Shown: positions 1,001 to 54,630 of the stretch, piece after piece
How the letters are laid out: every line of letters begins with the position of its first letter
Position numbering within the stretch: the first letter of the stretch is position 1
Virus record (IMG/VR): IMGVR_UViG_3300032030_000019
Length of the DNA stretch: 64,000 nt
Reading direction: 5' to 3' (one strand)
Source: a virus
Taxonomy: Duplodnaviria > Heunggongvirae > Uroviricota > Caudoviricetes
Translations under genes and position numbers: made by a program
Notes under the pieces: generated by a model
The model's input: only the letters and a program-made list of their open reading frames with translations
The model's database searches: none
What the model was told of the DNA's origin: nothing

Positions 1001-1237
1001 TTAGTTCCATAAATCTTCCGACTCCCAACCCTGATGTAAGTGCATTCCTAACAACGTTTGAAACGTAAACCAAAGTGAGGCGTTACGTGGACCCCCATTT
1101 AACGTTTCACCAACAAAACATAAATTTTCCTGATGGGGCATACAATACAGACATTTAACCCGATATCTAGTCATATGTGATGTCAATACATCTATCGTGC
1201 ATGTATCCCCAACGTTTACATCATACTTTATCCCCAT
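1001..1237 (-). CDS. hypothetical protein (78 aa)
   Basis: minus-strand ORF; start ATGGGGATAA overlaps upstream stop by 10 nt. Confidence 0.4.
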   Translation of the reverse strand: MGIKYDVNVGDTCTIDVLTSHMTRYRVKCLYCMPHQENLCFVGETLNGGPRNASLWFTFQTLLGMHLHQGWESEDLWN

Positions 1238-1539
1238 ACGTCTGAATCACCAATGTTGTTCCACACGTAGGTCTGAAGTTTGGTGAGATTAGTATGCATG
1301 TTTTCAGCTAAATCCCAGTTCGTACCTTCGCACAAAACGACTTGAGAGTCATCATCTACATAATTATATAGTGCCTTAAACTCCCACTCATCTATTACGG
1401 CGAACCTATGTGGACTTTGTGCTAACTTTACTTGGATAATTCTACGTGTATCCCCTATACATAAAGTCCTATTTTTGCTCATTGTATTATTCCGCATTGA
1501 CGTAACGTGAAGAAGAGAACTACAATGCCAAATATACAA
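1228..1539 (-). CDS. hypothetical protein, 'D-x-D-x-W-G' tail family
   Basis: C-terminal ...GDSDVWG shared with 4905..5189 and 1656..1889; true start probably the internal Met at about 1482 (MSKNRTL) coupled by ATGA to a small upstream ORF. Confidence 0.4.
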   Translation of the reverse strand: MYIWHCSSLLHVTSMRNNTMSKNRTLCIGDTRRIIQVKLAQSPHRFAVIDEWEFKALYNYVDDDSQVVLCEGTNWDLAENMHTNLTKLQTYVWNNIGDSDVWG

Positions 1540-1628
1540 CCAGCCAAAATAAGTCTAGCTATATCAGCGGTCCCATCTTTCTCACTATCACTTTCAGGAA
1601 ATAATTCGATTATATACTTTCGTCCCAT
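1480..1628 (-). CDS. small membrane peptide (49 aa, below the ORF-track cutoff)
   Basis: manual translation: MGRKYIIELFPESDSEKDGTADIARLILAGCIFGIVVLFFTLRQCGIIQ; one TM helix; stop overlaps the next ATG (ATGA). Confidence 0.25.
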
Positions 1629-1655
1629 ACACGCCTCCAACGTTTACATCATAAT

Positions 1656-1889
1656 CTAATCCCATATATCCCTGTCATAGCTGAATTGCCCCCAACGGTA
1701 GGTATTAAGTTTGGACTCGTCACTATAGGCGTTACCACTTAAATCCCACGAGGCGGGTTCACACCAAGTCACAAGACCAAATGTATATTCATATTGAACT
1801 AAAGCCTTGAGTTCCCAGAAATTCTCTACTACAGGTGCGACGTTGTGTTTTACTCCACGTATTATCTGAATATCACCAATGTCCATCAA
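1656..1889 (-). CDS. hypothetical protein (77 aa)
   Basis: ORF in the one-strand gene chain; C-terminal ...YDRDIWD resembles the D-x-W tail family. Confidence 0.4.
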   Translation of the reverse strand: MMDIGDIQIIRGVKHNVAPVVENFWELKALVQYEYTFGLVTWCEPASWDLSGNAYSDESKLNTYRWGQFSYDRDIWD

Positions 1890-2431
1890 ATTATTTTACA
1901 TTGGCACGAACGCATAACCTCAAGTGCAGCCTCATGTTTTTCCTTCGTTAGCCCAGCACACGCATCGGCCACGATAGTTACGTCCACACCTTCGATGGCT
2001 TTTATGGCCAACGCATTGGAAACGACGCAAATGTCAGTGCACGTACCAACCATCGTAACTGTTGAATGCGGCTCAATGAATGCACCCCACTTATCATATC
2101 CGAAGTGGGATTTATTGAGAATTGTATCATCTAACATAGGTGCCAACTCTTTTGTAATCTCCCAACCTTTAGTCTGATAGAGACAATGCGGCACAGGAAG
2201 ATACGTACCCTCTAACGTATTCAAATAATCTTCCTTGTGCGTGTCACGTGTGTAAATAATGTGATCACCACGTTTACGCGCCTCGCTTAACAACGTTTTA
2301 ATTTTGGGGATAATCTTCACTGCGTCCTCATTTGCGAGTGCCCCCGTTGTAAAATCGTTCTGCATATCAATAACCACAAAATATGCAGACGGTGTGTTTT
2401 CCTTTTCACTGCTTACTTTTTTTGTAAACAT
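1886..2431 (-). CDS. pncA: nicotinamidase / isochorismatase-family hydrolase (PncA-like)
   Basis: VVIDMQNDF (D-x-Q-N-D-F), DTH, catalytic-Cys motif VGTCTDICV; start set at the internal Met (MFTKK) with GAAGGAG SD right after the nadD stop. Confidence 0.75.
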   Translation of the reverse strand: MFTKKVSSEKENTPSAYFVVIDMQNDFTTGALANEDAVKIIPKIKTLLSEARKRGDHIIYTRDTHKEDYLNTLEGTYLPVPHCLYQTKGWEITKELAPMLDDTILNKSHFGYDKWGAFIEPHSTVTMVGTCTDICVVSNALAIKAIEGVDVTIVADACAGLTKEKHEAALEVMRSCQCKII

Positions 2432-2432
2432 A

Positions 2433-3053
2433 TTAGGCTCCTTCTTCCCTAAGATTTTTCGCATAAATTTTCACTAACTTCACACTCGATACATCAATCA
2501 AGTGCTGTAGCGATTTCCTCACTTCCGTTGCGCTTCCATCGCCGACGTATGCTACGTGTTCAACGTTTGTGCGTATGTTAATATTCTCAGACGTATACCC
2601 TGGACGATCCACTACAAGAATATCAGACTCACGTAGAATAACTTCATGTTTACGCCATAAGTGTAACATCTCGAAAGAGTCACCACCTATAACTGTTGTA
2701 AACGTATATTCGTTGCCCCATTTTTTCTTAACATCAAGTAACGTGTCAGCGAATCCACGTGTCGTATCCCTCAAATACGCAATTTCCATATCATCCACAA
2801 CTACGTTGCCCCAATTATCCGTAGCCTCACGTAACATAGCAACACGTTCAATGAAGTCAAAATTATATTCGTCTTCATCCTGTTTTTTACGATGCCATGT
2901 TACTGTAGTCGGAATGACCACTACCTGATCAAACCGATCCTTAAGCATCTCAATTATGCCTATATGTGTGGATGTGACAGGGTTAAATGTCCCACCATAT
3001 ATTGCTATTTTCATTCTAGTCTCCTGTTTACCATAATTTCTCCTGTTTACCAT
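2433..3053 (-). CDS. nadD: nicotinate/nicotinamide mononucleotide adenylyltransferase (NadD/NMNAT family)
   Basis: GGTFNPVTSTH (GGTFxPxHxGH-like), VIGGDSFEMLHLW...VVDRPGY, GSATEVRKSL match the NadD signature blocks; an alternative start is the Met of MKIAIYGG at 3014. Confidence 0.8.
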   Translation of the reverse strand: MVNRRNYGKQETRMKIAIYGGTFNPVTSTHIGIIEMLKDRFDQVVVIPTTVTWHRKKQDEDEYNFDFIERVAMLREATDNWGNVVVDDMEIAYLRDTTRGFADTLLDVKKKWGNEYTFTTVIGGDSFEMLHLWRKHEVILRESDILVVDRPGYTSENINIRTNVEHVAYVGDGSATEVRKSLQHLIDVSSVKLVKIYAKNLREEGA

Positions 3054-3412
3054 GATTCGACTCCAAAACCTATTCCCGGGTTGTAATATCCGTAATTCTT
3101 TTGGACCCCATATAATTCTATAAATATACCCAAATGTTCTGAAATCAAGTGACCGTCACACAGGTTCAACACAACCTCGTCCCGTGCTTCCCCTAAAAAT
3201 TGTCTACTATCATCATAGACCACAATACTAGCAAACAAATAGGTACCGACTTCTATTTTTTTCTTCATGTATTTACGCCCATGTATCCGTTTGCACCTTA
3301 AATGCACGATACGTTTTTGATGGATGTACCATGTCCGTACGTACGTGATAACTTTCATGTGGAAACGACCATTGATTACTACAGTCAGGGAAACGTAACA
3401 GGCCAAATTCAC
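3047..3412 (-). CDS. small protein, NPG-x-x-F...E-x-W tail family
   Basis: C-terminal YYNPGIGFGVESW; 7-nt stop/start overlap (ATGGTAA) with nadD. Confidence 0.5.
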   Translation of the reverse strand: MNLACYVSLTVVINGRFHMKVITYVRTWYIHQKRIVHLRCKRIHGRKYMKKKIEVGTYLFASIVVYDDSRQFLGEARDEVVLNLCDGHLISEHLGIFIELYGVQKNYGYYNPGIGFGVESW

Positions 3413-3537
3413 CGATTATGTGTCCACAAAGTTCTGTATATCTATTCCATGAACGAAATAAGCATAGTAATGTAAAGTCAACCTTACTTCCATTGCATAA
3501 AATCTTACGTTGGTAATAATCACCTACGTCTTTTGGT

Positions 3538-4449
3538 TTACGTCCCACTTTCAAACTCCAACGTTACACCACAATGAGGACATGTATTCTGTTCTCCTGT
3601 AAACTTTCCACCACATTCAGGACATTCGTACTCTTCCTCCTCATCCTGTACCTCAATCATATCGCACAAGTATTCATACGTATTCGCCGACATATGTTCT
3701 TTACCCTTGCCATACGTAACCAAGTCGGCAAGATCGTCAGAAGAAAACAGGCGCGCACGTACAAGATCTGAGATGATGTGTATAGGAAATTCCTGATGAT
3801 ATATAAAATCATCCGCGAGTGCTTGTACACTGATCTTATAATCCAAGAGCTCCATAGCTAATCTTAGATTAACCCTATTTCGTCCTAACGTAATCCCCAT
3901 CATATCATTAGGTACGTGAACCAATGCATGACGTCTCCACTCATCTAGATCGACTCTCATTGGTAATGTTAAATTAAGTGCATCAAGTATAAGTTTTTCC
4001 TGTCTCTCATTACCTGTAATCTGAATAACATCCATCGCACGATCATGCAGTACTTCACACAGATGTTCTTTATTAGCACCCCACTTTCCAATGAACGCAC
4101 CCATGTCACCCATAACACTGATCTTTGATCGTTCTCCGGGAACACGTACGGCTTTATATACGGTTACGTCACCATTACGTACGCCATCAATATCTTGCGT
4201 TAGTTTCAACAGATAATCAACGTTTCTGTCTAAGCTCAACGTATATCCTGTTGGCGTACGTTGAATACCTGTTACAAGTACATCTATGCAACTTCCGGTA
4301 TCACGTTCACTGATATACGGGACGTGAGCTTTCGGAAGTAATCCATCGATCTTTTGGTGATGAAACAAGATTAACCACTTGTTATTAACGTCTTGTGCGA
4401 TCTCCCCCGTTAATACGTCGCCTACGTGTTTTTCCAAACTACTTTTCAT
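3538..4449 (-). CDS. NusA-like RNA-binding protein (S1 + KH + C-terminal Zn ribbon), paralog 1
   Basis: S1-like N-terminus (VGDVLTGEI...GLLPKAHVP...TLSL), KH GxxG motif (AFIGKWGANK...MDVIQITGNE), CPECGG...CPHCG zinc ribbon. Confidence 0.5.
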   Translation of the reverse strand: MKSSLEKHVGDVLTGEIAQDVNNKWLILFHHQKIDGLLPKAHVPYISERDTGSCIDVLVTGIQRTPTGYTLSLDRNVDYLLKLTQDIDGVRNGDVTVYKAVRVPGERSKISVMGDMGAFIGKWGANKEHLCEVLHDRAMDVIQITGNERQEKLILDALNLTLPMRVDLDEWRRHALVHVPNDMMGITLGRNRVNLRLAMELLDYKISVQALADDFIYHQEFPIHIISDLVRARLFSSDDLADLVTYGKGKEHMSANTYEYLCDMIEVQDEEEEYECPECGGKFTGEQNTCPHCGVTLEFESGT

Positions 4450-5934: not shown

Positions 5935-6358
5935 TGTCTTCATCCTCCTCATCATTTTCATTCGCTTCATACTCATCACTATACTCTTCATTTGCCTCTT
6001 CTCGCTCACTGAATACCTCATAAAACGCGTAAGGTGCCATACAGCAACGCGCTATCACATCCAGGGTTTCCCAGGCTCCATCTCTTACGTCTTGCAAGAA
6101 TCGTTCTGCATCGCAAAATTCCCCATATGCAAACGCAACTGTGGGTAAATCAGATAACACACAATCTCGCGCCTCTCCGCTATTACAGAAGTACGACCCT
6201 GTCATATTGCCTGTGATCTCATCACTGTTCATAACCTCTTCTTCTATTTGCTCCTTAGTCATGTGCAAGCATTTCTCTTCGTTATTATCGAGCCATTCCT
6301 CAACGTCCGCTCGTACAGCCTCATAGTAATAATCGCTGTCTTCTGAAGGTTCAAACAT
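5927..6358 (-). CDS. acidic protein (143 aa)
   Basis: Asp/Glu-rich termini (EYSDEYEANENDEEDEDNE); coupled to neighbours. Confidence 0.45.
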   Translation of the reverse strand: MFEPSEDSDYYYEAVRADVEEWLDNNEEKCLHMTKEQIEEEVMNSDEITGNMTGSYFCNSGEARDCVLSDLPTVAFAYGEFCDAERFLQDVRDGAWETLDVIARCCMAPYAFYEVFSEREEANEEYSDEYEANENDEEDEDNE

Positions 6359-6974
6359 CTTGCTCCTCCTGACCGTTCATTGCTTCCCATAATGACGCAC
6401 GTAAAAGCGAAAGTTGCGATAATGCGTGTGTGACGTTGTACTTACGTTCATCCGTTTCCTCAAATACGTCAGCAAACTCATCATATGTCATTTCTATAAC
6501 TTCAATATCCTCTGCCTCATCTAATTTTTGATCACCCGCTTTTTCACATCCTAACGCACAGTAGATATATACGTTATTAGTTTGTATAGCTGGATTAACA
6601 CTGTATTTTCCAACGAAATGCCAATTATTACTCGTATATCCTGTTTCTTCAAGTAATTCACGTTTAGCTGCATTAAGTGCGTCTTCACCTTCTTCGATTG
6701 TACCTGCTGGCAATTCGTACGTAACTTCATTCGATCCTATACGATGTTGTTTTACGAATAACACACGTCCATCCTTTGTTTTTGCGTATATATGTACCCA
6801 ATCACTCATTTCAAGTCCTACAAACGTACGTGTAAGTTGTTTTGACGGTAAGTACGCTCTAATCTCGATTGTGTTAAATATACGATTATGTCCCATTGTG
6901 TTTACATCTTTTATCTGCCAGACGTGATTTTCAAACCCTTCTTTGTTTTTTGTGTTTTTATTATATCCGAACAT
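6351..6974 (-). CDS. NUDIX hydrolase
   Basis: Nudix box GTIEEGEDALNAAKRELLEETG (G-x5-E-x7-REUXEEXGU). Confidence 0.8.
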   Translation of the reverse strand: MFGYNKNTKNKEGFENHVWQIKDVNTMGHNRIFNTIEIRAYLPSKQLTRTFVGLEMSDWVHIYAKTKDGRVLFVKQHRIGSNEVTYELPAGTIEEGEDALNAAKRELLEETGYTSNNWHFVGKYSVNPAIQTNNVYIYCALGCEKAGDQKLDEAEDIEVIEMTYDEFADVFEETDERKYNVTHALSQLSLLRASLWEAMNGQEEQDV

Positions 6975-7512: not shown

Positions 7513-7896
7513 TTATCTCCTGGAAAAATTGTCTTTAAGGGTACGATGAAGCACCCACATAAAATGATTCATCTCCTCTTCGGTCATATTATTTAATGAT
7601 AAAGTCTCAAACCACTCAGGCTCTGCCTTGTCCATATGAGTAGTGCATAGTAGATTATCATTCTCATCAACCCACGCATCACAAAAGTATTTTCTATCTG
7701 GGATCCATTCGCGAGTCTGTAAATAATAATCATCTATTCTATCTACTAATATCCCATGATCATCATCCAATTTTATTTTACTGTGAGGCTCGTTTTTGAT
7801 ATATATCTTTATATATTGTATAGCCTCACTTCTTGATTGATGACAATTCAGGATATGTTTCCACAGCAAGGCTGCTAAATCTTCAGCGCTTACCAT
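7513..7896 (-). CDS. hypothetical protein (127 aa)
   Basis: ORF in the gene chain. Confidence 0.45.
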   Translation of the reverse strand: MVSAEDLAALLWKHILNCHQSRSEAIQYIKIYIKNEPHSKIKLDDDHGILVDRIDDYYLQTREWIPDRKYFCDAWVDENDNLLCTTHMDKAEPEWFETLSLNNMTEEEMNHFMWVLHRTLKDNFSRR

Positions 7897-8123
7897 GCGT
7901 CACCCTCATCCAAAGGGTTGAACCCCGTCTCAGTACGCTTTACCGCATTCTCTTTGCCACTCGGGAATTCATACGCCTCGAAAGTCTGATCCTTATCCTT
8001 ACCATGAGCTATTTCGAATTTTGCGCCCAAATCTACAGTTAATGCTTTCTGTTCTTCTTCTGTAACAACTGTACTCATTTTACACTCCTTAAACAAAGTT
8101 ATCGATTGACATTTGATACCCAC
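7890..8123 (-). CDS. hypothetical protein (77 aa)
   Basis: ORF; 7-nt overlap with the downstream gene; tail ...EGDAW. Confidence 0.4.
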   Translation of the reverse strand: MGIKCQSITLFKECKMSTVVTEEEQKALTVDLGAKFEIAHGKDKDQTFEAYEFPSGKENAVKRTETGFNPLDEGDAW

Positions 8124-8658
8124 GATATTTCTGATCGTCGGTTACATCTCTGACGCCCCATTCAGGTACCTTGAAATTCTTAGCAGCCTCTTCACTAGGA
8201 AATTCCTGTTCACCTGTTATGATTGTTTTTCCATTCGGGAATCGGCGTACAAGGACAACACCCTGATCATTCTCCATTTTGTACACCGTGTTATACGTAA
8301 TCCCTATTAATTGGTCCTTGTGTTCCTGTAAGTAGTGATCAAAGAAAACCTTCGAGACCGTATCAGTCATTTCAAGACGTTTAGTTCCACTTATAGTCTT
8401 CTTTACCAACTTCTTATACGTATGCTTAGGATCTTTCTTACGTATATACTTATCTACCATACGTACTATTTCTCCGCCCACGTTGAAGTAATAGTGTTCT
8501 ACGTAATGTGAAAGTGTGCCATGTTTTTCCACGTCAGCCAAATTTTTACACAAATACGTACGTTCAATTTCCACCTCCTGTCTTTTTACGTTTACGGGTT
8601 TAGAACCCTTATTCTCAAGAAACCTCAATTCTTGTTCTTCTAGATCCAACGCCCCCAT
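8089..8658 (-). CDS. hypothetical protein; possible CYTH/triphosphate-tunnel-like fold
   Basis: E-V-E-I-E-R (ExExK-like) motif near the N-terminus and a size of about 190 aa; weak. Confidence 0.35.
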   Translation of the reverse strand: MGALDLEEQELRFLENKGSKPVNVKRQEVEIERTYLCKNLADVEKHGTLSHYVEHYYFNVGGEIVRMVDKYIRKKDPKHTYKKLVKKTISGTKRLEMTDTVSKVFFDHYLQEHKDQLIGITYNTVYKMENDQGVVLVRRFPNGKTIITGEQEFPSEEAAKNFKVPEWGVRDVTDDQKYRGYQMSIDNFV

Positions 8659-8668
8659 TAAAACCTCC

Positions 8669-8932
8669 TTATAACAGTAGCTTTGCGGCTTTAGGGTTGA
8701 TAATTATTGTGCCCACGGTTAACGCCACTGATAACAATGAGCAAATTCCGCATATGAGTTGAACAACCGCATGCGAATCCATTTTTCTTTTCACCATACC
8801 CTCTTGTTGTGGCTGTACCTGAACGACTTCTTGTGCACGTACGGGTGGTTTCTCTATCAGACCCAAACGTATTTTTGTAGCTAAAATTCGTTCATCCAAC
8901 TCTTTTAATCTCTGACGTTCCGCTATTGTCAT
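8669..8932 (-). CDS. hypothetical protein with C-terminal TM helix
   Basis: VVQLICGICSLLSVALTVGTIII hydrophobic stretch. Confidence 0.4.
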   Translation of the reverse strand: MTIAERQRLKELDERILATKIRLGLIEKPPVRAQEVVQVQPQQEGMVKRKMDSHAVVQLICGICSLLSVALTVGTIIINPKAAKLLL

Positions 8933-9109: not shown

Positions 9110-9391
9110 TTAAAAATGTTCCCTCACGTCTTCCCCATCTATGAAATGTACGTTATCGCCATCAACCTCATACGTTGCGATTACGTGTTCTTTGGGTACG
9201 AACCGAGCTAACTCAGGGCTTTCCCATGTTTTATTCCATTCATCTTCCTCATATTGAAAACCCCATTTGTCACCAAAACTCTTAAACATTGCGTTACGTG
9301 TTTCAGTATACGTACCATATATTCGGACAGCGTTACCACCTAAACGTTGTCCACTTCCAAATGTAAATATGTATGCTTTACGTTCATTCAT
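9110..9391 (-). CDS. hypothetical protein (93 aa)
   Basis: ORF. Confidence 0.4.
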   Translation of the reverse strand: MNERKAYIFTFGSGQRLGGNAVRIYGTYTETRNAMFKSFGDKWGFQYEEDEWNKTWESPELARFVPKEHVIATYEVDGDNVHFIDGEDVREHF

Positions 9392-9393
9392 AA

Positions 9394-9876
9394 TTACGCC
9401 TCCTTAATGCGCATATTCTCAGGTGGTAACGTCGGCTCGGAAATTGTTGAACAGTAATAGTCCATATAATCACCTCCGTACGCACGTGCGAGCACATTTG
9501 ACCACCCACGTAGCGAATATTCAAGGCGATACGTATTGTTTATTATGGGACAACCGAATTCACCATGTTGATGATAATCAGGATCAAACTTAATGTTCGT
9601 TGCCTTCAAATAATCAACAAGTACGTTTTCACAACTATCCATGAACAAACTTATGTCGCCACCTTTGTACCTATCCCAGTCTGTAAATTGCGTATCACCC
9701 CAATGCGTAAAACCGGTGACTTTGTACAATGGATCGGTAGCCTCTGTAACCTTACCGGTTGTCACATTAAATCCACAAGCTATGAGTGCGTTTTTTACGG
9801 AATTAAGATGATTATTGACTTCTTCCTTTGTTAAGTCATCAGGTATTTCACATTCAAAGATAATGTTTACATTCAT
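9394..9876 (-). CDS. hypothetical protein (160 aa)
   Basis: ORF. Confidence 0.45.
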   Translation of the reverse strand: MNVNIIFECEIPDDLTKEEVNNHLNSVKNALIACGFNVTTGKVTEATDPLYKVTGFTHWGDTQFTDWDRYKGGDISLFMDSCENVLVDYLKATNIKFDPDYHQHGEFGCPIINNTYRLEYSLRGWSNVLARAYGGDYMDYYCSTISEPTLPPENMRIKEA

Positions 9877-10326: not shown

Positions 10327-10578
10327 TCATACCCTATGAGAGAATTCTTTATTTAATTTTGACCCATGTGCTGCAAGCATTTGTGCAATTTCATTGCGAT
10401 TATAATAGAGATGGTCCTCATACATCTCCTGTAAAAACGCTTCTGTCTCGCCATCTTCTTCAAGAGTACAAAACAGTGAAGTCCCTACGTCTTCTAATAG
10501 ATCATCCCTATCCACAATAGTCGGATAATCATGATCAGCCAAGTATTCCTCAATGGCTGATGCTACGTACCCGTTCAT
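10327..10578 (-). CDS. hypothetical protein (83 aa)
   Basis: ORF; ATGA overlap with the upstream gene. Confidence 0.4.
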   Translation of the reverse strand: MNGYVASAIEEYLADHDYPTIVDRDDLLEDVGTSLFCTLEEDGETEAFLQEMYEDHLYYNRNEIAQMLAAHGSKLNKEFSHRV

Positions 10579-11123
10579 ACATCGCTCCTTTTAAAACCCT
10601 TTAGTTCCCCTTTCATCCACTTGCATGCCTGTTCACAGATATTATCAAAGTCCTCCATGTATCTACAGATACGCCGCCACCAAGCATCATCTGCGATTAA
10701 CGTACATGTGTCAATGTGATGGAATTTATCAGGATTATTACCCCACGTAGCATCAATTCCAACTTTGTAGACACGGGGTGGATATGCTGAATTTGTATTT
10801 GGAAACAATACAAGATAATGCAACAATTGATCCGTTGTATTTAAATAAGTTTGAAGTCCTAAACCCACCTCACCATCAGATGGCAAAAAGAATGCCCATA
10901 GCGTTTCAGGAACCAAATAATGAAACTTCCCTTTGCCATTAGACATAAATTGCTCACATCTTTTTAGCAGTTCTACCAACTCGAGCAATGTAGCGTTGTT
11001 TTCCTTAGTCCAGGCACCCCATCTCTCCTCGCGCTCCAACAATTTCTTTTGATACTCTTTTTCTTCGTTATCTTTTGCCTCTTCGTATTCTTTCAGCATC
11101 GCATCTAATTCTTCGTCTAACAT
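10575..11123 (-). CDS. hypothetical protein (182 aa)
   Basis: ORF. Confidence 0.45.
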   Translation of the reverse strand: MLDEELDAMLKEYEEAKDNEEKEYQKKLLEREERWGAWTKENNATLLELVELLKRCEQFMSNGKGKFHYLVPETLWAFFLPSDGEVGLGLQTYLNTTDQLLHYLVLFPNTNSAYPPRVYKVGIDATWGNNPDKFHHIDTCTLIADDAWWRRICRYMEDFDNICEQACKWMKGELKGFKRSDV

Positions 11124-11393: not shown

Positions 11394-11660
11394 TTAAATG
11401 CCTCCTACTTCCACCCAAATGCTTCTGCGCTTATCAAAAGCTCCAGCACATAATACGTCAACAAATTCATGACTTCGTAGCCACTTCCAATCTGTAGCTA
11501 ACAATGCTCTTCCATTAACTCTTTCCTCACCAATTACTGATCCATTTGCTACAACCATAGACCCAGCAAAAAGAGCTGACCATTCATCAACGACATAATC
11601 ACAACCAATGTCTTTTAGTATGAATAGTCTCTTTGTTACAGGGGTTCCTTTTCTTTGCAT
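11394..11660 (-). CDS. hypothetical protein (about 88 aa)
   Basis: likely start ATG at 11660 (MQRKGT) with AAGGAG 8 nt upstream and a TAATG overlap with the preceding gene. Confidence 0.45.
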   Translation of the reverse strand: MQRKGTPVTKRLFILKDIGCDYVVDEWSALFAGSMVVANGSVIGEERVNGRALLATDWKWLRSHEFVDVLCAGAFDKRRSIWVEVGGI

Positions 11661-11878
11661 TACCACGTCTCCTTTTTAAATGGTAGTCCGGGGTTTAAGT
11701 ACCCACATGTGGGAGCTCCTATACCAACTATCCAATCCAAAAACTCTGTGATAATTACATTACGATGGTAATGCAACGACTTACTACAAAAGGATTGATC
11801 CCCACGCCAAAAGAGGGTGTGCTCATTATACAATTCAGTCAGATAGTATGATACTCCAATTTCTGAACTTGTTACCAC
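11660..11878 (-). CDS. small protein, NPG tail family (YLNPGLPFKKETW)
   Basis: conserved C-terminal tail; its Lys-Glu codons (AAGGAG) form the SD of the next gene. Confidence 0.5.
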   Translation of the reverse strand: MVTSSEIGVSYYLTELYNEHTLFWRGDQSFCSKSLHYHRNVIITEFLDWIVGIGAPTCGYLNPGLPFKKETW

Positions 11879-12087
11879 TTATCCTCCTTGAACCGAAAAC
11901 CCGGATTTAGAAAGCCATAAGCATGCTCGTTAGTAGCATACCTATGCGAAAACTCACCTATATACTCACTACTTTCAAGCTCTAAGAAAAAAGGGTCATC
12001 ATAGTCTATAGGAATACTATCATTACCTATTATCAAATCAATAAATATTGCTTGTAGATGCCATCTTGTGCCCACTTCCATCACCAC
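11872..12087 (-). CDS. small protein, NPG tail family (FLNPGFRFKEDKW)
   Basis: same tail and the same 7-nt overlap geometry. Confidence 0.5.
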   Translation of the reverse strand: MVMEVGTRWHLQAIFIDLIIGNDSIPIDYDDPFFLELESSEYIGEFSHRYATNEHAYGFLNPGFRFKEDKW

Positions 12088-12314
12088 ACCTCCGAGTCAA
12101 AGCTAAAGCCCGGATTGTAATGTGAGCGTTGTAGATTCATATGAAAATCGAACGTTTCATTGAACTCCAGGATAAATGACGAGCGGTTTTGATAGAGTAA
12201 GACGTCAATGTAATTACAATAAATGTAATAACAACCAAAGACGCCCTCTCCATCCTCAGACATGCTACGGCACAGATAGGAGTTACCAATTACGTTAGCG
12301 ATCACGTTTGTCAT
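12081..12314 (-). CDS. small protein, NPG tail family (YNPGFSFDSEVW)
   Basis: same tail; GGAGGTG SD and a TGATG overlap with the next gene. Confidence 0.5.
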   Translation of the reverse strand: MTNVIANVIGNSYLCRSMSEDGEGVFGCYYIYCNYIDVLLYQNRSSFILEFNETFDFHMNLQRSHYNPGFSFDSEVW

Positions 12315-13422
12315 TATTGCAACGTGAGCACAACATTTGGCAATTTTCTTCCACAGTACGTCCGCCCTTTGACCATGGCACTACGTGATCACCTTGCATG
12401 TCCTCAAACGTAAACTCACCACCACATATAGCGCACTTATGCCCCTGACGTTCATACATACGTCTCTTCATTTGTTCAGGGAACGTACGTATGGATAAGT
12501 ACTTCTCATCGTGAGTTGTACGTTCAGACAATATGTACGGAATTATACCTGTTTGTTTAGTTACATCCTCATCCATAACCAACTTATTTATGGTTTCACG
12601 TAATTCATTTGTGTTATATACGTGGCCATGATATTTGTTATAGAGTGTGCCCCAATCCTGATTCTCCGTTAACTTTTTCGGTACGTCAGGGAACATACGT
12701 TTGGCCCACGATATAACCTCTTGAAAGTACAACCACAATTCGTTGGCATCCACGTCATGCTGATGTAGGGCCATGTACTGTTCCAACGTTATGCCGTCAC
12801 GTTCAGCTATCCACGTCAATGCCTTTTCCAAATATTCCTGACGTATGGAGTTCGCCTTTACATACCCGTCTGACATTTGTGCCGCAGCGCACCCACGTTT
12901 ACTGAAATAACGTTTGGCGTCTGAGATGAACGTTCCGGCATACGTAGCGTTTAACAATTCTTGGTTTGTTAATGGTACACCTGCAATGTTTATAATCTTG
13001 AACCATGCCAAACGTTCCTCTGTTGTACCCTCACATATGTATACTGTAACCTCGTAATCAAGTATACGTTGCTGCTCAGTTTCGGTAAGGTTACGCATGT
13101 ATTTTTCATGTCCGTCAATTTTAATAGGGTACATATTCTCCAAATACTGACCTATTGAGATCGTACGTTGCTGTCCATCAATAACCTCATATTCTGAGTC
13201 TGACACTTTTGACCAATACATCGTGTTCAATGGGAAACCATTGTAAACTGAATTAATGACAGCTCTACGTTGTTGATCGTTATACACAAACTCACGCTGA
13301 TACATGGGGCGTACAGTTAACTTATGATCAGCATTGTAATACGTGAATACGCCATCATCTTTAAGATCTATATACCCCTCACATAGATCTCGTACTTTAA
13401 TTTTTGCTTCTGTTATCTTCAT
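12295..13422 (-). CDS. DUF262 (ParB/GmrS-like, DGQQR motif) + C-terminal HNH endonuclease fusion
   Basis: YQREF...VIDGQQRTISIGQYL (DUF262 hallmark) and C-terminal HKCAICGGEF...GDHVVPWSKGG...NCQMLCSRCNNDK (HNH); 26-nt overlap with the upstream methyltransferase. Confidence 0.7.
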   Translation of the reverse strand: MKITEAKIKVRDLCEGYIDLKDDGVFTYYNADHKLTVRPMYQREFVYNDQQRRAVINSVYNGFPLNTMYWSKVSDSEYEVIDGQQRTISIGQYLENMYPIKIDGHEKYMRNLTETEQQRILDYEVTVYICEGTTEERLAWFKIINIAGVPLTNQELLNATYAGTFISDAKRYFSKRGCAAAQMSDGYVKANSIRQEYLEKALTWIAERDGITLEQYMALHQHDVDANELWLYFQEVISWAKRMFPDVPKKLTENQDWGTLYNKYHGHVYNTNELRETINKLVMDEDVTKQTGIIPYILSERTTHDEKYLSIRTFPEQMKRRMYERQGHKCAICGGEFTFEDMQGDHVVPWSKGGRTVEENCQMLCSRCNNDKRDR

Positions 13423-14347
13423 CTTGTGCTCTCCTTTTAATTAAGATTCTAAAATACGGACATTGTCCATTAATGCTTAGATCTTTGTCATTGTTACCTT
13501 TACGAAATTTAATAATTTCAAATTGTTCAGGATTGTACTTATCTACAAAGGTGACGGGGACTCCCATAACTCCGTAATAATCTTTAGGAATCAGAGCTAT
13601 ATCTCCGACTCGTTCCTTCTTTTTGTTTGTTTTCCCGATATCAATGGCATCATAATTATCATATTTAGGGAATTTCATAGGGTCATATGTTTCCCATAAG
13701 ATGAGGTCTTCATGACGCTTTTGTATATCTAAGTTTGTAAACCAACGACATAACCCCGAAACTTTCTTTGTAGTTCCACTTGGTGTATCAAATTCATTAG
13801 GACTAGTATAACCTAACCATACTCGATTATCCTTGATTAACGGAAATATCTCTTTATAAGTTATGCTATTTTTATTTCCAACAATCAAAAACTTTTTATT
13901 ATATTTCATCAATAATTCTATATAGTCACGAAAAAGACTAAATGGTGGGTTAGTCACAATGATGTCAGCTTCCTTTAACAACTCAACACATTCTTCGCTT
14001 CTAAAATCTCCATTACCACTTAGAAACGATTGTGTACCAATATCAATATCATTATCATTACCGCCTTCGTATTCGAGTTTATATGAAAACTTATCGCGTT
14101 CATAATGCGTAGATATGAGTTTTTTTAACCCTAACAACTGAAATTTAAGGTGGAAGTATTTCCAAAAAGCAGATGTTGTTGGGTCATCGCAATTACAGAA
14201 TACGATCTTATTTTTGAAATGTTTGTCATAATGGCACAGTTCGTTGGATACATCATCTAATTTTGTATAAAATTCATCATTCTTTTCTTTCTTTGCCTTA
14301 TGTAAATTCTTATTACTCATGTTTATTACCCCTCCTATACTCACCAT
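13397..14347 (-). CDS. N6-adenine DNA methyltransferase, EcoRI-methylase-like
   Basis: IVTNPPFSLF (motif IV NPPF), KNDEFYT, KIVFCNCDDP, YYGVMGVPVTF...NPEQFEI; from memory this resembles M.EcoRI-family enzymes. Confidence 0.65.
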   Translation of the reverse strand: MVSIGGVINMSNKNLHKAKKEKNDEFYTKLDDVSNELCHYDKHFKNKIVFCNCDDPTTSAFWKYFHLKFQLLGLKKLISTHYERDKFSYKLEYEGGNDNDIDIGTQSFLSGNGDFRSEECVELLKEADIIVTNPPFSLFRDYIELLMKYNKKFLIVGNKNSITYKEIFPLIKDNRVWLGYTSPNEFDTPSGTTKKVSGLCRWFTNLDIQKRHEDLILWETYDPMKFPKYDNYDAIDIGKTNKKKERVGDIALIPKDYYGVMGVPVTFVDKYNPEQFEIIKFRKGNNDKDLSINGQCPYFRILIKRRAQDEDNRSKN

Positions 14348-14631
14348 GTCTCCTCATTAAATCTCCTAGCAGGATTATACCAACCAAGCCCATGTTTTAA
14401 GATACGGGAATCTAAGTAGAACTCACTACAGTACCACACATCAAAATCCCCACCCGCAGCTAAAGCTTCTGTAATACAATACAAAAGCTTCATGGGGATG
14501 TGGGGTTTAAGTATATACCATGTATCGTGATGATTCCATGCACTATGTTTTAGTAGTGAAGTACCAGGTTGTAGGATCTCCATGTGATTAAACGTATCCC
14601 CGACGTCCGCCATGATGTTTGTCTTACGCAT
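14341..14631 (-). CDS. small protein, NPG tail family (WYNPARRFNEETW)
   Basis: conserved tail; 7-nt overlap with the methyltransferase start. Confidence 0.5.
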   Translation of the reverse strand: MRKTNIMADVGDTFNHMEILQPGTSLLKHSAWNHHDTWYILKPHIPMKLLYCITEALAAGGDFDVWYCSEFYLDSRILKHGLGWYNPARRFNEETW

Positions 14632-15522: not shown

Positions 15523-16509
15523 TCAGAACGAATAACGACCACTTGCTTCCATTTCACCCTTGATCCAATTACGAATACGGTGGAAATCATCTGAACCAAC
15601 GTAGGTCTCACGTAAGTTCTCAGGTACAGCCGACTCAAGTGAGAGGAACGTATTCATGATGTCCTGTGTATGTGAGAAGTATGCTGACGGACGTCCTTTC
15701 ATACCACCACGCTGTTCAGTCAGGAAGTCTATGATATCCTTACGTCGCTGCCAGAACTTATGCAAACGTTCAGCCTGTTCGTTTTCCAACAGTGAGCCCT
15801 CAAGTATCTCCTGTAAATGGTCAACCCAATACGTGTTCTTTACGTACAGACAATACAGAAGTACGCCTGTTTTGACATCATCGTATCGCCCAACGTTACG
15901 CCCAAACTTAAAGCTCAAGCCTGTTAACGTAAATGGCGACTCCGCGTTGTAACGTTCAAGTACCTCATACATTGCTTTCGTTACTGTCAACGGATCCCAG
16001 CCAACACGTGTGAACGATGCCACATTCTTAAGCACGGACGTCTCAGTCTGTGGCTTACGTAAGGCATCAGCAATTGAACGTTTACGCTGACGATCGATGG
16101 TCTCATATGCGTCATCACGTTCGCCCATACTTAATTGTACGACACACTCACCTGGTATATGTCCCCATACGTGTCGAATTGCCTCAAGACGATGCTGACC
16201 ATTCAACAGGACCCACGATTCTGATATTCCAATACCCTGCTCAGGTGCATATATCAATCCTGAGTTTACAAGACTATTTTCAAGTTTCTTTTTAGCATCT
16301 GCACTCATGGTACGATTAGCCTCATTACGTTCCAACAGTGCCTCGATAAGTGGAAGTGTCAGTTTTACAGCAGCCGTAACCACACCATTATACTCGGTTG
16401 CTATCCCATTTCCTGCATATTCCACTTTTTCGCCATCACAAAACAGTTCGGTGCCTCTTAACTCCAACTGATGTTTCTTAATGGTCTTTGAATTTCTAAC
16501 TACTCTCAT
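15523..16509 (-). CDS. DGQHR-domain protein (DndB/ParB-like nuclease-fold family)
   Basis: WVLLNGQHRLEAIRHVWG contains the (D/N)GQHR signature of the DndB/DpdB-like ParB-fold family. Confidence 0.55.
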   Translation of the reverse strand: MRVVRNSKTIKKHQLELRGTELFCDGEKVEYAGNGIATEYNGVVTAAVKLTLPLIEALLERNEANRTMSADAKKKLENSLVNSGLIYAPEQGIGISESWVLLNGQHRLEAIRHVWGHIPGECVVQLSMGERDDAYETIDRQRKRSIADALRKPQTETSVLKNVASFTRVGWDPLTVTKAMYEVLERYNAESPFTLTGLSFKFGRNVGRYDDVKTGVLLYCLYVKNTYWVDHLQEILEGSLLENEQAERLHKFWQRRKDIIDFLTEQRGGMKGRPSAYFSHTQDIMNTFLSLESAVPENLRETYVGSDDFHRIRNWIKGEMEASGRYSF

Positions 16510-18824: not shown

Positions 18825-19055
18825 TTACTTTTTTGGTTTCCACCCACGGTGTATTACAGGCGACCTGCTCGAAGTCGTGTGAAAATAACCACAGTGGGGA
18901 CACTTGTATATACGATCGGGAATACGTTTACCATAACGTTTTATTCTCGACCGTCTTCTTCTGTGTGCTATATTTACTACTCTCTGCGCCTCTTGAGAAG
19001 AGTAGCATACTTTTCCACTCGCGGGGCAGATTTCGTATTCGTTTTTGTCCTCCAT
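18825..19055 (-). CDS. small zinc-ribbon protein (76 aa)
   Basis: CPASGKVC...CPHCG pairs (C-x4-C ... C-x2-C), basic. Confidence 0.4.
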   Translation of the reverse strand: MEDKNEYEICPASGKVCYSSQEAQRVVNIAHRRRRSRIKRYGKRIPDRIYKCPHCGYFHTTSSRSPVIHRGWKPKK

Positions 19056-19157
19056 GACTATCCTCCGAATACCTTTCTTTCCATCCCATTGCGAGCCTTG
19101 TATTTTGTATATACATATATACTCCTTATAATTTTCTCTTTTCGCTCCCTCAAAAAA

Positions 19158-19958
19158 TTATTTCGTGAATTTACGTACAAAGTATTTTGCCAAATCAATT
19201 TTCTTTTTTCCGTATCTAAGGTAATACCTTGTTGGAATCCGTAAGTGAGCCTTACCCTGTTCATCCTTAAATGCTATAGGCGTTGTTTCGGATATTAATG
19301 TAAGGGTAGAATCTATCACCTTGAGTAGCGATTCGGATACCCCTAATACCTCAGTACCCTTTGTATGAATGAGGTATAGAGTTTTGATGTTGCCCCCCGT
19401 AGTGCGGCCTGTGATCTTAAATGTCCCAGCATGAAGAGACATCAAGCAGTGTGTGGCTAGAGGAGCAACCTTTTCCATTTCCTCCCATGCACTAAAGGGG
19501 TCTACGTCTTCAAATATAGCTCCTCCGTTTCTTGCAATGAACATACATTCGGATGTTCTCTTGCGATCCTCGCTATCTAGTCCCTGAGAATAATTCTTCA
19601 AGAGGAGGATCCATACGTTCTCTACATGATACCCTGATGGTGTAGGGTGTTTGTTTTGTGTGACCCACAAAATATGATCCTGTTCATCGCCCAGTTTCCC
19701 ATGACAAGTTAGTTTTAACCACTGAGTGCATTTTTCATGCTCTATCTCCATGATTTCAAACTCATCAGTATCGGGTGATCCAATCACAGGGATCAATACC
19801 GTTTCGCCAACCCTTGGATCAAATTGTACTAATTTCTCTTTCCCATTCCAAGGCAAATTATTCTCGATAATCCACCTTTTGTATAAGTTATGCAACTTCT
19901 GTTTATTTCCCCATTTCCATCCTAAAAACTTATTACTATTTACTTTACTATTGCTCAT
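19158..19958 (-). CDS. hypothetical protein (266 aa)
   Basis: ORF. Confidence 0.5.
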   Translation of the reverse strand: MSNSKVNSNKFLGWKWGNKQKLHNLYKRWIIENNLPWNGKEKLVQFDPRVGETVLIPVIGSPDTDEFEIMEIEHEKCTQWLKLTCHGKLGDEQDHILWVTQNKHPTPSGYHVENVWILLLKNYSQGLDSEDRKRTSECMFIARNGGAIFEDVDPFSAWEEMEKVAPLATHCLMSLHAGTFKITGRTTGGNIKTLYLIHTKGTEVLGVSESLLKVIDSTLTLISETTPIAFKDEQGKAHLRIPTRYYLRYGKKKIDLAKYFVRKFTK

Positions 19959-27866: not shown

Positions 27867-28988
27867 TTATCCTTTCAAAACCATTCTAGCTTGTTCTGCA
27901 TTTTCAAAGATGCACTCCTTGCCGTTTATGATTATCTTAACTTTATTGTTAGAAGAAGTATTGTTGACTTTTACATCTACATTTACTTCAATCTTTGGTT
28001 CTGACGTTTCCTCAGGTTTAACACGGAACTCGAACCTCTCATCGTCAAAATACTCAGGTTTTATAGTTACCATTTTAATCCCAGGACAAAGATCTCCCCA
28101 TTCATTCGTTGAGCTTCGTCGTATCTGAATAGGCTTGTCCTCCTTGAAATACGCCCATTTAACCTCATAGTTTGGGTCGTAGTAGGCGAATCTATAGTAT
28201 CCTGCGCTACCTTGAAGACAAAAGGGATACACATCGCTCTCTGAGTAGTGTGATAGTGTGCCCATCTCGCTAGGTCCTTTATGATGAATCGCCCTTTGAA
28301 GGGTTTCTATATAATCACCACAAAACACTTTTTTCCCACGCAACACCTCATCCCATTCAAAATGTACGAATTTTGAATTGTATAAGTTCACTTCTTTTCT
28401 CTTTTCGGTGTTGTTCGTTTCAGTCATATTAACCTCCTTTTTTGGTCTCCTAGTTATAGCACAATCAGAATCGACTATTCCTTCCGGTCTAATCTCTAAC
28501 TGTGCGGGTATTGAAATATTTTTCAGGTTAGAACAACCAAAGAATACATGGCTACCAATACTTGTTACGCTATCGGGTATCGTGATACGAGTTAGACTGT
28601 TGCAATACTTGAATGCTAGATCACCTATATTCGTCACACTGTCAGGTATAACCACATTCATCAAACTGTAGCAGTCTCTGAATGCATTATCGCCTATGTT
28701 CATCACGCTGTCAGGCATCGTCACACTCGTCAAGCCAGTGCAGCCATAGAATGCATAGTCACCAACAATTGTTACTCCGTCCTTTATTACGACTGACTCA
28801 ATCTGCTGACACCCGTAGAATAGGAAATCGGGAACCACGCTATTCTTGCCCGTATTTATGACTACTTCCTTGATGTCATAATACCCCACTAGACCATTAT
28901 AAGCTGGTCCACTAACACCTTCGAACGACCAGATTACTAGCCGATCATCGTCTATACAGAAATCGTTCTTTATTCTAAGAATACCCAT
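27867..28988 (-). CDS. BspA-type leucine-rich-repeat protein
   Basis: tandem units of about 23 aa (IPDSVTNIGDLAFKYCNSLTRIT / IPDSVTSIGSHVFFGCSNLKNIS); start set at MGILRIK with AGGAGG 6 nt upstream. Confidence 0.7.
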   Translation of the reverse strand: MGILRIKNDFCIDDDRLVIWSFEGVSGPAYNGLVGYYDIKEVVINTGKNSVVPDFLFYGCQQIESVVIKDGVTIVGDYAFYGCTGLTSVTMPDSVMNIGDNAFRDCYSLMNVVIPDSVTNIGDLAFKYCNSLTRITIPDSVTSIGSHVFFGCSNLKNISIPAQLEIRPEGIVDSDCAITRRPKKEVNMTETNNTEKRKEVNLYNSKFVHFEWDEVLRGKKVFCGDYIETLQRAIHHKGPSEMGTLSHYSESDVYPFCLQGSAGYYRFAYYDPNYEVKWAYFKEDKPIQIRRSSTNEWGDLCPGIKMVTIKPEYFDDERFEFRVKPEETSEPKIEVNVDVKVNNTSSNNKVKIIINGKECIFENAEQARMVLKG

Positions 28989-29030
28989 TTTACGCCTCCT
29001 ATTGCTACGCAACCGTTTCGCTCACGCTCA

Positions 29031-34104: not shown

Positions 34105-35340
34105 TCAACCTCTTGTCCCTTCAGCAAATCTATTTTTTTTAATATGCACTCTTTTCGGAAATGCATTTTCCCCGATTAATACTCCACTGGGTATAGTTAC
34201 ACTCGTCAGTTGAGTACAATCCTCGAATGCATAATCACCAATGCTCATTACACTGTCAGGTATTGTTACACTCGTCAGTCTGCTACAACACAAGAATGCA
34301 CCACTGCCTATGTCTGTCACGCTGTTACCTATTGTTACACTCGTCAGACCATCACAGCCACTGAATGCATAATCACCTATGCTTGTCACGCTGTCAGGTA
34401 TTGTTACACTCGTCAGACCATCACAGCCACTGAATGCATAATCACCTATGCTTGTCACGCTGTCAGGTATTGTTATGCTCGTCAGACCGATACAGCCACT
34501 GAATGCATAATCACCTATGCTTGTCACATTACTCGGTATCGTCACACTCGTCAGGCCGCTGCAGTTATAGAATGCATGGCTGCCTATGCTCGTCACACTG
34601 TCTCCTATCGTCACACTCGTCAGACCATCACAGCCACTGAATGCATAATCACCTATGCTTGTCACACTGTCAGGTATTGTTATACTCGTCAGACTACTAC
34701 AACCGTTGAATGCATGGTTGCTTATACTCGTCACGCTGTCAGGAATAATCAAGTCTGTAACAAGCTTTCCATCCACCTCAAGTTGGTAGGTGAAATTAAA
34801 AGGCCAAGGAGCCCAGTGAATGTGACACCATTGCTCGATAGTCCCCTTATATTTTATTAGGAGGGACTGATTTAACAATGCATTCTCCCCAATATAGCTA
34901 ACAGTATCTGGGATCACGACACTGTCATTTTTCATATATGAGATCAATCCAAAGGGTAGATACACAATCCCTTTCATGAAGACCTTGTATCTTTTTTCCT
35001 CAAACTTGGGGCCTTCATCCTTGTCCCAACCGAGGCTATTTACTTCCTTGACCTCTTGAAGATACTCATCCAGGATCTGGGTATCATTTAAAACATAATC
35101 CTTCCACTCTATTACATTGGAGTATGGAAGTTTGTATCTGTTTTTATAGAGGAGTCCCCAATTATACTCCTCAAGGTTTTGATGTTTTGCCCTGTTCATT
35201 ACAGAGAGAGCAGTGGTTCTGTTAATTGTCTCCATCTTTTGGATCTTGGCTTTTTCTTTGTCAAACTCCTTCATACCCGGCGTCCTCCTTAACAAACACT
35301 TACGTCCGACATAACGCAAGAGAGGTTTTACGGAACCCAT
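34105..35340 (-). CDS. BspA-type leucine-rich-repeat protein with near-identical tandem repeats
   Basis: at least 9 consecutive units of 23 aa (IPDSVTSIGDYAFSGCDGLTSVT) encoded by near-identical 69-bp repeats. Confidence 0.7.
   Translation of the reverse strand: MGSVKPLLRYVGRKCLLRRTPGMKEFDKEKAKIQKMETINRTTALSVMNRAKHQNLEEYNWGLLYKNRYKLPYSNVIEWKDYVLNDTQILDEYLQEVKEVNSLGWDKDEGPKFEEKRYKVFMKGIVYLPFGLISYMKNDSVVIPDTVSYIGENALLNQSLLIKYKGTIEQWCHIHWAPWPFNFTYQLEVDGKLVTDLIIPDSVTSISNHAFNGCSSLTSITIPDSVTSIGDYAFSGCDGLTSVTIGDSVTSIGSHAFYNCSGLTSVTIPSNVTSIGDYAFSGCIGLTSITIPDSVTSIGDYAFSGCDGLTSVTIPDSVTSIGDYAFSGCDGLTSVTIGNSVTDIGSGAFLCCSRLTSVTIPDSVMSIGDYAFEDCTQLTSVTIPSGVLIGENAFPKRVHIKKNRFAEGTRG
34190..34770 (-). repeat. 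69-bp near-identical tandem repeats (coding; LRR units)
   Basis: e.g. ccatcacagccactgaatgcataatcacctatgcttgtcac... recurs almost verbatim at a 69-nt period; this also explains the spurious plus-strand ORF 34210..34860. Confidence 0.8.
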
Positions 35341-54435: not shown

Positions 54436-54630
54436 TTAAATTTTATATTCTTTTCGGTCCTCGAACTCTTGTGCTCTACCTTTGTTCCAATTTTTAATAG
54501 CCCGATAATACCCAACGATGCGAGAATATACCTCGGTCTCTTGGTCTCTCTTGCCATCAAGTATGTCTTTACGTCGTTGTTCTAGATCGGCTAAGCGATC
54601 TGTAAGTTCTTGTTTACTTGCTACTCGCAT
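54436..54630 (-). CDS. nrdD: glycyl-radical domain of NrdD encoded as a separate, overlapping ORF
   Basis: SRIVGYYRAIKNWNKGRAQEFEDR matches the RxxGYxxxxxxxNxGK glycyl-radical tail of NrdD, but lies in the -1 frame, overlapping the nrdD stop by 10 nt. Confidence 0.6.
   Translation of the reverse strand: MRVASKQELTDRLADLEQRRKDILDGKRDQETEVYSRIVGYYRAIKNWNKGRAQEFEDRKEYKI

Follow-up and report, generated by a model that had tools for sequence, protein, structure and literature searches.

Why do five small genes of one phage end in almost the same residues, and why do the last codons of some of them run into the start of the next gene? This question is raised by a 64,000-nucleotide (nt) stretch of the virus record IMGVR_UViG_3300032030_000019 (Caudoviricetes), which is referred to here as the window. 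It lies on a longer contig (about 133 kb) of an uncultured large phage, with nearly all genes on one strand and a GC content of 0.40. The five genes, numbered G1 to G5 here, sit in a block of small, tightly packed genes on the same strand, and the array has no intergenic gaps. Our explanation, held with moderate confidence, is that they are paralogues of a lineage-restricted family of small, probably beta-rich phage proteins of about 66-96 amino acids (aa), which was expanded by tandem duplication within a long, tightly packed single-strand accessory operon.

A family of small proteins with a common tail

A six-frame regular-expression scan of the 64 kb found the pattern NP[GA]xxF exactly five times, in each case at the minus-strand end of one of the five open reading frames (ORFs) and always with xx[ED]xW-stop after it at constant spacing, 12 codons before the Trp-stop. 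A hidden Markov model (HMM) of the family likewise matches only these five ORFs among the 844 stop-to-stop segments of the window, with E-values between 2e-28 and 2e-14 and a next best value of 0.48. The tail consensus, [YH]-G-[YFW]-x-[NQS]-P-[GAC]-x-x-F-x-x-[ED]-x-W-COOH, covers about 15 residues, and its Trp is invariant in all 21 sequences seen. A preliminary description of this DNA had reported five ORFs with a common NPG-x-x-F-x-x-E-x-W-stop ending, and all of them are present on the minus strand. Its listing of the tails was one position off in order relative to the coordinates; the tail is YYNPGIGFGVESW for the ORF at 3047, YLNPGLPFKKETW at 11660, FLNPGFRFKEDKW at 11872, HYNPGFSFDSEVW at 12081 and WYNPARRFNEETW at 14341, each running up to the stop codon. 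Its claim that NPG..F is conserved at the protein level was borne out, since the copies use different synonymous codons for Asn (AAC/AAT), Pro (CCG/CCC/CCT), Gly (GGA/GGT/GGC), Phe (TTT/TTC) and also Glu (GAA/GAG).

In the direction of transcription, G5 (14341..14631, minus strand) encodes 96 aa with the terminal tail GWYNPARRFNEETW and is followed by a methylase gene; its orthologue on a sister contig, L001, lies at 8503-8751, and the ratio of nonsynonymous to synonymous substitution rates (dN/dS) between the two is 0.26. G4 (12081..12314, minus strand; 77 aa; tail SHYNPGFSFDSEVW) is the first of a tandem trio that extends from 12314 down to 11660, as had been described before. Its start overlaps the 3' end of a GmrSD/HNH nuclease gene, and it has an orthologue at L001:9762-10001 with a dN/dS of 0.20. 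The second gene of the trio, G3 (11872..12081, minus strand; tail YGFLNPGFRFKEDKW), encodes 69 aa from the ATG at 12081; the ORF reaches back to a GTG at 12087, but the ATG, which is part of a TGATG, is the most likely start, as in the 69-aa database protein P0001. G2 (11660..11878, minus strand; 72 aa; tail CGYLNPGLPFKKETW) starts with a GTG inside the AAGTGG of the G3 tail and matches the database protein P0003. The remaining copy, G1 (3047..3268, minus strand), encodes 73 aa beginning with MKKKIEVG and ending with YGYYNPGIGFGVESW, in which Glu is encoded by GAA. The extent of 3047..3412 given earlier for this ORF is over-extended, and the shorter gene is more likely according to the Joint Genome Institute (JGI) gene call on contig L007 and the 72-aa orthologue in L001.

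The similarity does not seem to be restricted to the tail. In alignments of 14 sequences, the same order of motifs is found in all members, with [VI]-G-x-x-[YW] at the N-terminus, D-P-x-L-[YF] in the centre, then [SE]-[EG]-F and the tail, and a Gly and a Phe column in the bodies are invariant across all eight paralogue groups. When the bodies of these eight groups were shuffled, none of 300 shuffles reached the observed identical-pair score of 238 (166 +/- 16 in shuffles), and the two invariant columns compare with 0.06 in shuffles. As the tail-less multi-sequence alignment exceeds every shuffle, we treat the five ORFs as true, highly diverged paralogues of similar length, which agrees with their initial designation as a paralogous family.

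Between the window and L001, the orthologue pairs of the family show dN values of 0.09-0.49 and dN/dS values of 0.20-0.74. For the comparison genes, namely SSB, nadD, NUDIX, a KH protein and a neighbouring gene encoding 328 aa, dN is 0.04-0.10 and dN/dS 0.08-0.17, so the dN of the family is several-fold above that of neighbouring genes. Judged from these substitution patterns, the family members are coding and under relaxed or diversifying constraint.

Outside this phage lineage, no relatives were found. The best matches in Pfam (E-value of 0.22) and PHROGs v4 (0.11) point to no family common to the members, PADLOC-DB contains no match for the family, and the best match among PDB sequences (0.13) is an unrelated lectin. 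Word-seeded searches across 5.8 billion clusters brought up nothing from outside the lineage, and an exhaustive profile search of 1.84 billion protein representatives yielded six clusters, all of them from within it. A degenerate DNA pattern for the tail gave three matches in IMG/VR, all of which are chance matches with no ORF behind them, and the 167 pattern matches in metagenome contigs scanned with the 328-aa neighbour as anchor include no true relative. Copy number varies within the lineage, with five copies in the window, eight in L001, whose anchor protein is 92% identical, and a single divergent copy in L008, whose anchor protein is 66% identical. The L001 tails include the variants SPG, QPG and QPC and one insertion of 2 aa. 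L008 is without the main array; its single copy before nadD ends with PCYRFNDEIWE and a stop (HMM E-value of 0.0024), that is, with one extra residue after the Trp. As a set of small accessory genes that were duplicated in tandem in a phage and are translationally coupled, this ORFan family is new and lineage-restricted but ordinary in kind. It provides a specific sequence marker for this phage lineage as well as candidates for functional screens.

Tail codons at the gene junctions

Translationally coupled cistrons carry a Shine-Dalgarno (SD) sequence inside the upstream ORF and a stop/start overlap such as TAATG, ATGA or TGATG. These hallmarks are found for G2, G3 and G4 but not for G1 and G5. 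G2 runs into a gene for 88 aa (11394..11660, minus strand) as AAG GAG ACG TGG TAA TG, where its Lys-Glu codons form the SD sequence AAGGAG (11669..11674, minus strand) 8 nt before the ATG of the 88-aa gene and stop and start overlap in TAATG. At the junction from G4 to G3 (TCG GAG GTG TGG TGA TG), the (TC)G-GAG-GTG codons of G4 contain GGAGGTG (12087..12093, minus strand) 7 nt before the ATG of G3, with a TGATG overlap at 12079-12083. The end of G3 reads AAG GAG GAT AAG TGG TAA; here, the SD sequence AAGGAGGA, formed by Lys-Glu-Asp codons (11882..11889, minus strand), is separated by a short spacer of 3 nt from the GTG of G2 (11876-11878), which lies inside AAGTGG within AAGTGGTAA. This G3-to-G2 junction is the only one at which bases of the Trp codon are used in a start codon, as the TAATG and TGATG starts overlap the stop codon instead. 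The spacing between SD and start is 5-8 nt in G2, G4 and most L001 copies, with the start overlapping the preceding stop.

An embedded SD sequence had also been claimed for the junctions with nadD and the methylase, and this part of the claim did not hold since both genes have an SD sequence and an ATG of their own. G1 ends with GAA TCA TGG TAA, and the ATG of nadD at 3014 (MKIAIYGG) follows after a gap of 32 nt, preceded at 6 nt by a GGAG of its own. In L001, an ATG does lie within the Trp codon before nadD; it is out of frame with nadD and reaches a stop after seven codons, and therefore it cannot be the nadD start. G5 ends with GAG GAG ACA TGG TGA, and the methylase has AGGAGGGG, followed by 8 nt and then an ATG about 20-21 nt past the stop. 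The Pfam domains of nadD and the methylase both begin at residue 5 of these short forms.

The choice of codons differs accordingly between coupled and uncoupled copies. In the window, L001 and L008 alike, the copy before nadD has GAA for Glu, a codon that does not resemble an SD sequence. At coupled junctions with Glu, the codon is GAG in nine of nine cases, compared with 45% GAG genome-wide (binomial p = 8e-4), although these codon-choice statistics use orthologous junctions, which are not independent and to that extent weaken the case. In 7 of 10 coupled copies, including the one at L001:10001 that has Lys instead of Glu, a Val (GTN) at position -1 lengthens the SD sequence. Glu and Trp are accordingly kept by selection on the protein, and the SD role constrains the choice of codons (GAG and Val GTN) where a cistron follows immediately. 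The preliminary description had regarded the terminal E-x-W-stop as forced by the SD sequence and an A-TGG-TAA overlap. With Glu as GAA before nadD in three lineages and Trp in a start at one junction only, the causal direction is mostly the opposite, i.e. a protein-level tail that has been co-opted as a ribosome-binding site. The locus shows such dual coding clearly, since a Glu(-Val)-Trp-stop end provides both SD and spacer for the next gene and GAG versus GAA tracks the coupling. It is a tidy feature that leaves current understanding unchallenged; a look at the literature on SD-driven bias of protein C-termini found nothing directly relevant.

Several observations on these junctions can be added. 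The 88-aa gene downstream of G2 belongs to no known family and has relatives in L001 at 9172-9426, a paralogue, and at 10422-10691. The L001 paralogue also stands directly after a family member with a TGATG junction, which suggests that a two-gene unit was duplicated. Between G1 and the ATG of nadD (3020-3053, minus strand), a 15-nt junction sequence comprising the end of the Trp codon, stop and SD, ATGGTAAACAGGAGA, occurs twice in tandem with AATT in between, and this may be a slippage duplication or the scar of a lost family member. One more copy is present in L001 at the pre-nadD locus, but upstream of G1 (18964-19218). An unrelated small gene at 7890-8123 ends with GAT GAG GGT GAC GCA TGG TAA (EGDAW and stop), with the ATG of the next gene (7513-7896, MVSAED) inside the Trp codon and the SD sequence GAGGGTGA; the forcing of the terminal residues proposed in the preliminary description does apply there. 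In a crude set of ORF calls for the window, about 15 of 106 have a Trp among the last three residues, whereas roughly 4 would be expected from a Trp frequency of 1.4%.

Proposed role of the tail and alternative explanations

The tail is maintained by selection at the protein level, as its synonymous codons vary and Glu and Trp stay even in copies whose tail plays no part in a following SD or start. In the tandem copies, the GAG(-GTN) codons double as SD sequence and the stop overlaps the next ATG (T[AG]ATG), which would allow termination-reinitiation coupling as far as can be judged from sequence. Because the ribosome-binding site lies inside the tail, each copied unit automatically brings the site for the following cistron. 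Asn-Pro-Gly is a strong turn former, and a tail with this turn between aromatic residues could fold into a C-terminal beta-hairpin ending in Trp, which may close the small fold or be a docking element that all members have in common even as their variable bodies diversify. The most economical reading of the tail would be a hairpin that closes the fold or docks and that is common to diversifying accessory proteins. The members are probably fast-evolving accessory or host-interaction proteins and could act as counter-defence factors because of their fast evolution, their variable copy number and their neighbours, i.e. the methylase, the GmrSD-like nuclease and the NAD-salvage-like genes nadD, isochorismatase and NUDIX. 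The region with its DNA-modification, nuclease and NAD-salvage-like genes is of the kind in which counter-defence genes are usually found. If so, the family would add to the fast-diversifying accessory families, here in a large uncultured phage that probably infects an anaerobe.

Besides the dependence among the junctions, several points weigh against this account. After removal of the last 13 residues, no pairwise comparison of the bodies is significant, and body-only HMMs built by leaving one group out mostly fail, the exceptions being one L001 member (E-value of 4e-9) and G4 (0.012). Homology over the whole length is thus drawn from the multi-sequence shuffle test, to whose score the closer pair G6/G7 adds, and from the two invariant columns. 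AlphaFold2 predictions from two alignments with different lead sequences reached a predicted local distance difference test (pLDDT) of 46 and 48, with the tail below 50; at this low confidence, both models consist mainly of strands. The beta-hairpin of the tail is suggested by general knowledge of the turn propensity of N-P-G, and guilt by association is what points to an accessory or counter-defence role.

The explanation closest to the preliminary description is that the (K)E-x-W-stop ending is a by-product of nucleotide constraints, namely an embedded GGAG and an A-TGG-TAA or TGATG overlap. G2, G3, G4 and most L001 copies do have a GAG within AAGGAG, GGAGG or GAGGT near an overlapping start, and the consistent GAG at coupled junctions, the SD extension by Val GTN and the Trp codon in the next ATG of the unrelated 7890-8123 gene fit as well. 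Nevertheless, we regard it as doubtful since nadD and the methylase each start from a separate SD and ATG past the stop, the ATG in the L001 Trp codon leads out of frame to a stop, the pre-nadD copies of three lineages have a GAA without an SD role, and Trp is invariant although it lies outside the start in the TAATG and TGATG junctions. Just as doubtful is that the tail is an autonomous functional element, either a docking peptide or degron directed to one host or phage hub or a nascent-chain pause that drives reinitiation, with protein motif and ribosome-binding site having co-evolved in the same nucleotides and being copied with each duplication. It is quite unlikely that the tail is a portable C-terminal module, such as a short linear docking motif or degron, that was recombined onto unrelated small proteins, so that the ORFs would not be true paralogues. 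The weak pairwise and leave-one-out similarity of the bodies would be explained in this way, as would the duplicated 15-nt tail-end and SD junction before nadD and the break of synteny between relatives exactly at the end of a tail. However, the alignment of the bodies alone surpasses all 300 shuffles with Gly and Phe invariant in eight groups, the members are alike in length and motif order, the tail DNA is too divergent for homologous recombination, and no other protein among the 1.84 billion representatives was found to bear the tail.

An action in cis, in which the tail as a nascent peptide in the exit tunnel pauses termination and thereby promotes or regulates reinitiation in the manner of TnaC or SecM, would account for a conserved stretch of exactly the last 13-15 residues that directly adjoins the stop in the copies of the window and of L001, is conserved at the amino acid level while the bodies diverge, and in most copies stands directly before a coupled start. 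This is very improbable given that the tail resembles no known arrest motif, all three stop codons are used, L008 has a residue after the Trp, and one L001 tail contains a 2-aa insertion. Moreover, the uncoupled copies lie anywhere between 3 and 24 nt from the downstream SD, and the bodies are under purifying selection, as expected of functional proteins. Finally, spurious or non-coding ORFs with a motif that is a DNA-level repeat, as the preliminary description had allowed for, would agree with the lack of database homologues but are barely credible, because none of the five orthologue pairs reaches a dN/dS of 1, the motif is kept through synonymous changes, and the ORFs are maintained in three lineages and fit a gap-free array on the same strand.

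Comparison with known systems and genomic setting

Like other translationally coupled cistrons of bacteria and phages, the tandem copies have an SD sequence inside the upstream ORF, at 5-8 nt from a start overlapping with the stop, and no gaps. They differ in that the SD sequence is written into a conserved protein motif (Glu-Val), that the junction was spread with each duplicate, and that two of the five window copies are uncoupled yet keep the motif. By analogy only, the family resembles multi-copy sets of ORFan genes that large phages keep, each in its own lineage, in plastic or accessory regions, among them the small early genes in the hyperplastic regions of T4-type phages and the SPO1 host-takeover module; these are likewise small, tandem, fast-evolving, variable in copy number, ORFan and next to modification or counter-defence-type genes. 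In contrast to these, with which it has no sequence relation in PHROGs, it is marked by a strictly C-terminal motif of 15 residues ending in Trp. Short C-terminal peptides with acidic residues and a terminal aromatic residue are also known from the SSB tip (D-D-D-I-P-F) and from the clamp-binding tails of T4 gp43, gp33 and gp55. Such tails sit on flexible linkers of unrelated proteins and have known partners, whereas the bearers here are homologous and the motif consists of an NPG turn, F and E-x-W. An SSB-type acidic tip was rejected, as the tails, which have one or two acidic residues and in many cases a Lys or Arg, finish with Trp and follow no Gly/Pro-rich linker; the SSB of the phage itself ends with PPQQF.

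Further candidates were considered and dropped. The beta2-turn-beta3 segment of the WW domain (PF00397; Y-Y-x-N-H-x-T-x-x-T-x-W) shows a loose likeness in its two aromatic residues, its Asn turn and a Trp about 10 residues later. None of 14 members matches PF00397 at an E-value of 5 or below, and there is no structural support. A WW domain has two Trp spaced by about 20-22 residues, whereas an upstream Trp at about -23 is found only in some members. The viral 2A peptide (D-[VI]-E-x-N-P-G-P), whose activity is specific to eukaryotic ribosomes, is alike only in Asn-Pro-Gly; in the tails, Gly is followed by I, L, F, F or R, the D[VI]Ex prefix is missing, and the motif lies nine codons before a normal stop. 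A precursor of a ribosomally synthesised and post-translationally modified peptide (RiPP) would not have bodies of about 55 aa that are subject to purifying selection, and the window contains no modifying enzyme next to the family genes. A radical-SAM gene does stand at the locus of the array in a more distant lineage (L008:11412-12332, L009:11827-12732 and L010:10233-11138), which means that it occurs where the array is absent. Reading the aromatic C-terminus as the beta-signal of an outer membrane protein (OMP) or as a PDZ ligand was also abandoned, as inspection by eye, with no predictor run, showed no N-terminus that is hydrophobic or resembles a signal peptide.

Other small proteins of the window have acidic ends with a Trp. 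Those at 1001, 1228, 1656, 4905, 7890, 17558 and 3273 were rejected as demonstrable family members with family HMM E-values of 6 or above. A second tandem family lies between the isochorismatase and SPFH genes, with three copies in the window (1001-1889, minus strand) and four in L008 (18603-19729). These proteins have about 76-84 aa, an N-terminal IGD and tails ending in WGQFSYDRDIWD, GDSDVWG or ESEDLWN before the stop; a profile-profile comparison with hhalign gave a probability of 0.2% for a relationship with the family described here. A protein of about 90 aa is encoded just upstream of G1 (window 3273-3554; L001:18698-18973; L008:16945-17214) and resembles the family in having DVGDYY at the N-terminus, IIGEF in the centre and YRAFKVQTDTWA before the stop. 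With a family HMM E-value of 6.2, it may be a degenerate relative of the family.

The phage has no close DNA relative among 50,697 phage records, and its DNA polymerase is at most 24% identical to those of isolates. The window encodes a family-A DNA polymerase, a DnaB-like helicase, a 5'-3' exonuclease, an anaerobic ribonucleotide reductase with an intein, an SSB, a NUDIX protein, a nadD-like nucleotidyltransferase, an isochorismatase-family protein, an SPFH protein and BspA-type leucine-rich-repeat proteins. Between the 328-aa gene (15523-16509) and the block of small genes, a strong hairpin resembling an intrinsic terminator, with a 16-bp stem and a T-run (15515-15480, minus strand), probably marks the boundary of a transcription unit, and the family array lies downstream of it. 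No terminator-like site was found in the tandem trio from 11660 to 12230, and one weaker match (12259-12235) lies inside G4. A scan for sigma-70 promoters was uninformative, with fewer sites than in shuffled sequences.

Between G5 and G4, an EcoRI-type adenine methylase gene (13397-14320) and a gene for a nuclease with GmrSD_N (DUF262) and HNH domains (12295-13422) occupy 12295..14320 on the minus strand. They replace four small genes of the sister phage (L001:8754-9758), two of which are extra family members, and the homology between window and L001 extends precisely up to the stop codon of G5. The arrangement suggests that a cassette, perhaps a mobile modification/nuclease module, was exchanged at gene boundaries. 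The genes for the nadD-like nucleotidyltransferase (CTP_transf_like), the isochorismatase-family (nicotinamidase-like) protein and the NUDIX hydrolase, located at 1886-3014 and 6351-6974, are kept in all three lineages and could form a set for NAD salvage or NAD reconstitution.

At NCBI, the partial homologue P0019 of the 328-aa neighbour carries a Bacteroidota metagenome-assembled genome as its source label. This host label warrants caution, as the phage has strong GGAGG-type SD sequences at many junctions. The two BspA-type leucine-rich-repeat proteins are encoded at 27867-29012 and 34105-35340. At 54621-58199, the anaerobic ribonucleotide reductase NrdD, which has an ATP-cone, is split by an intein splicing domain at about residues 542-870, and its presence points to an anaerobic host.

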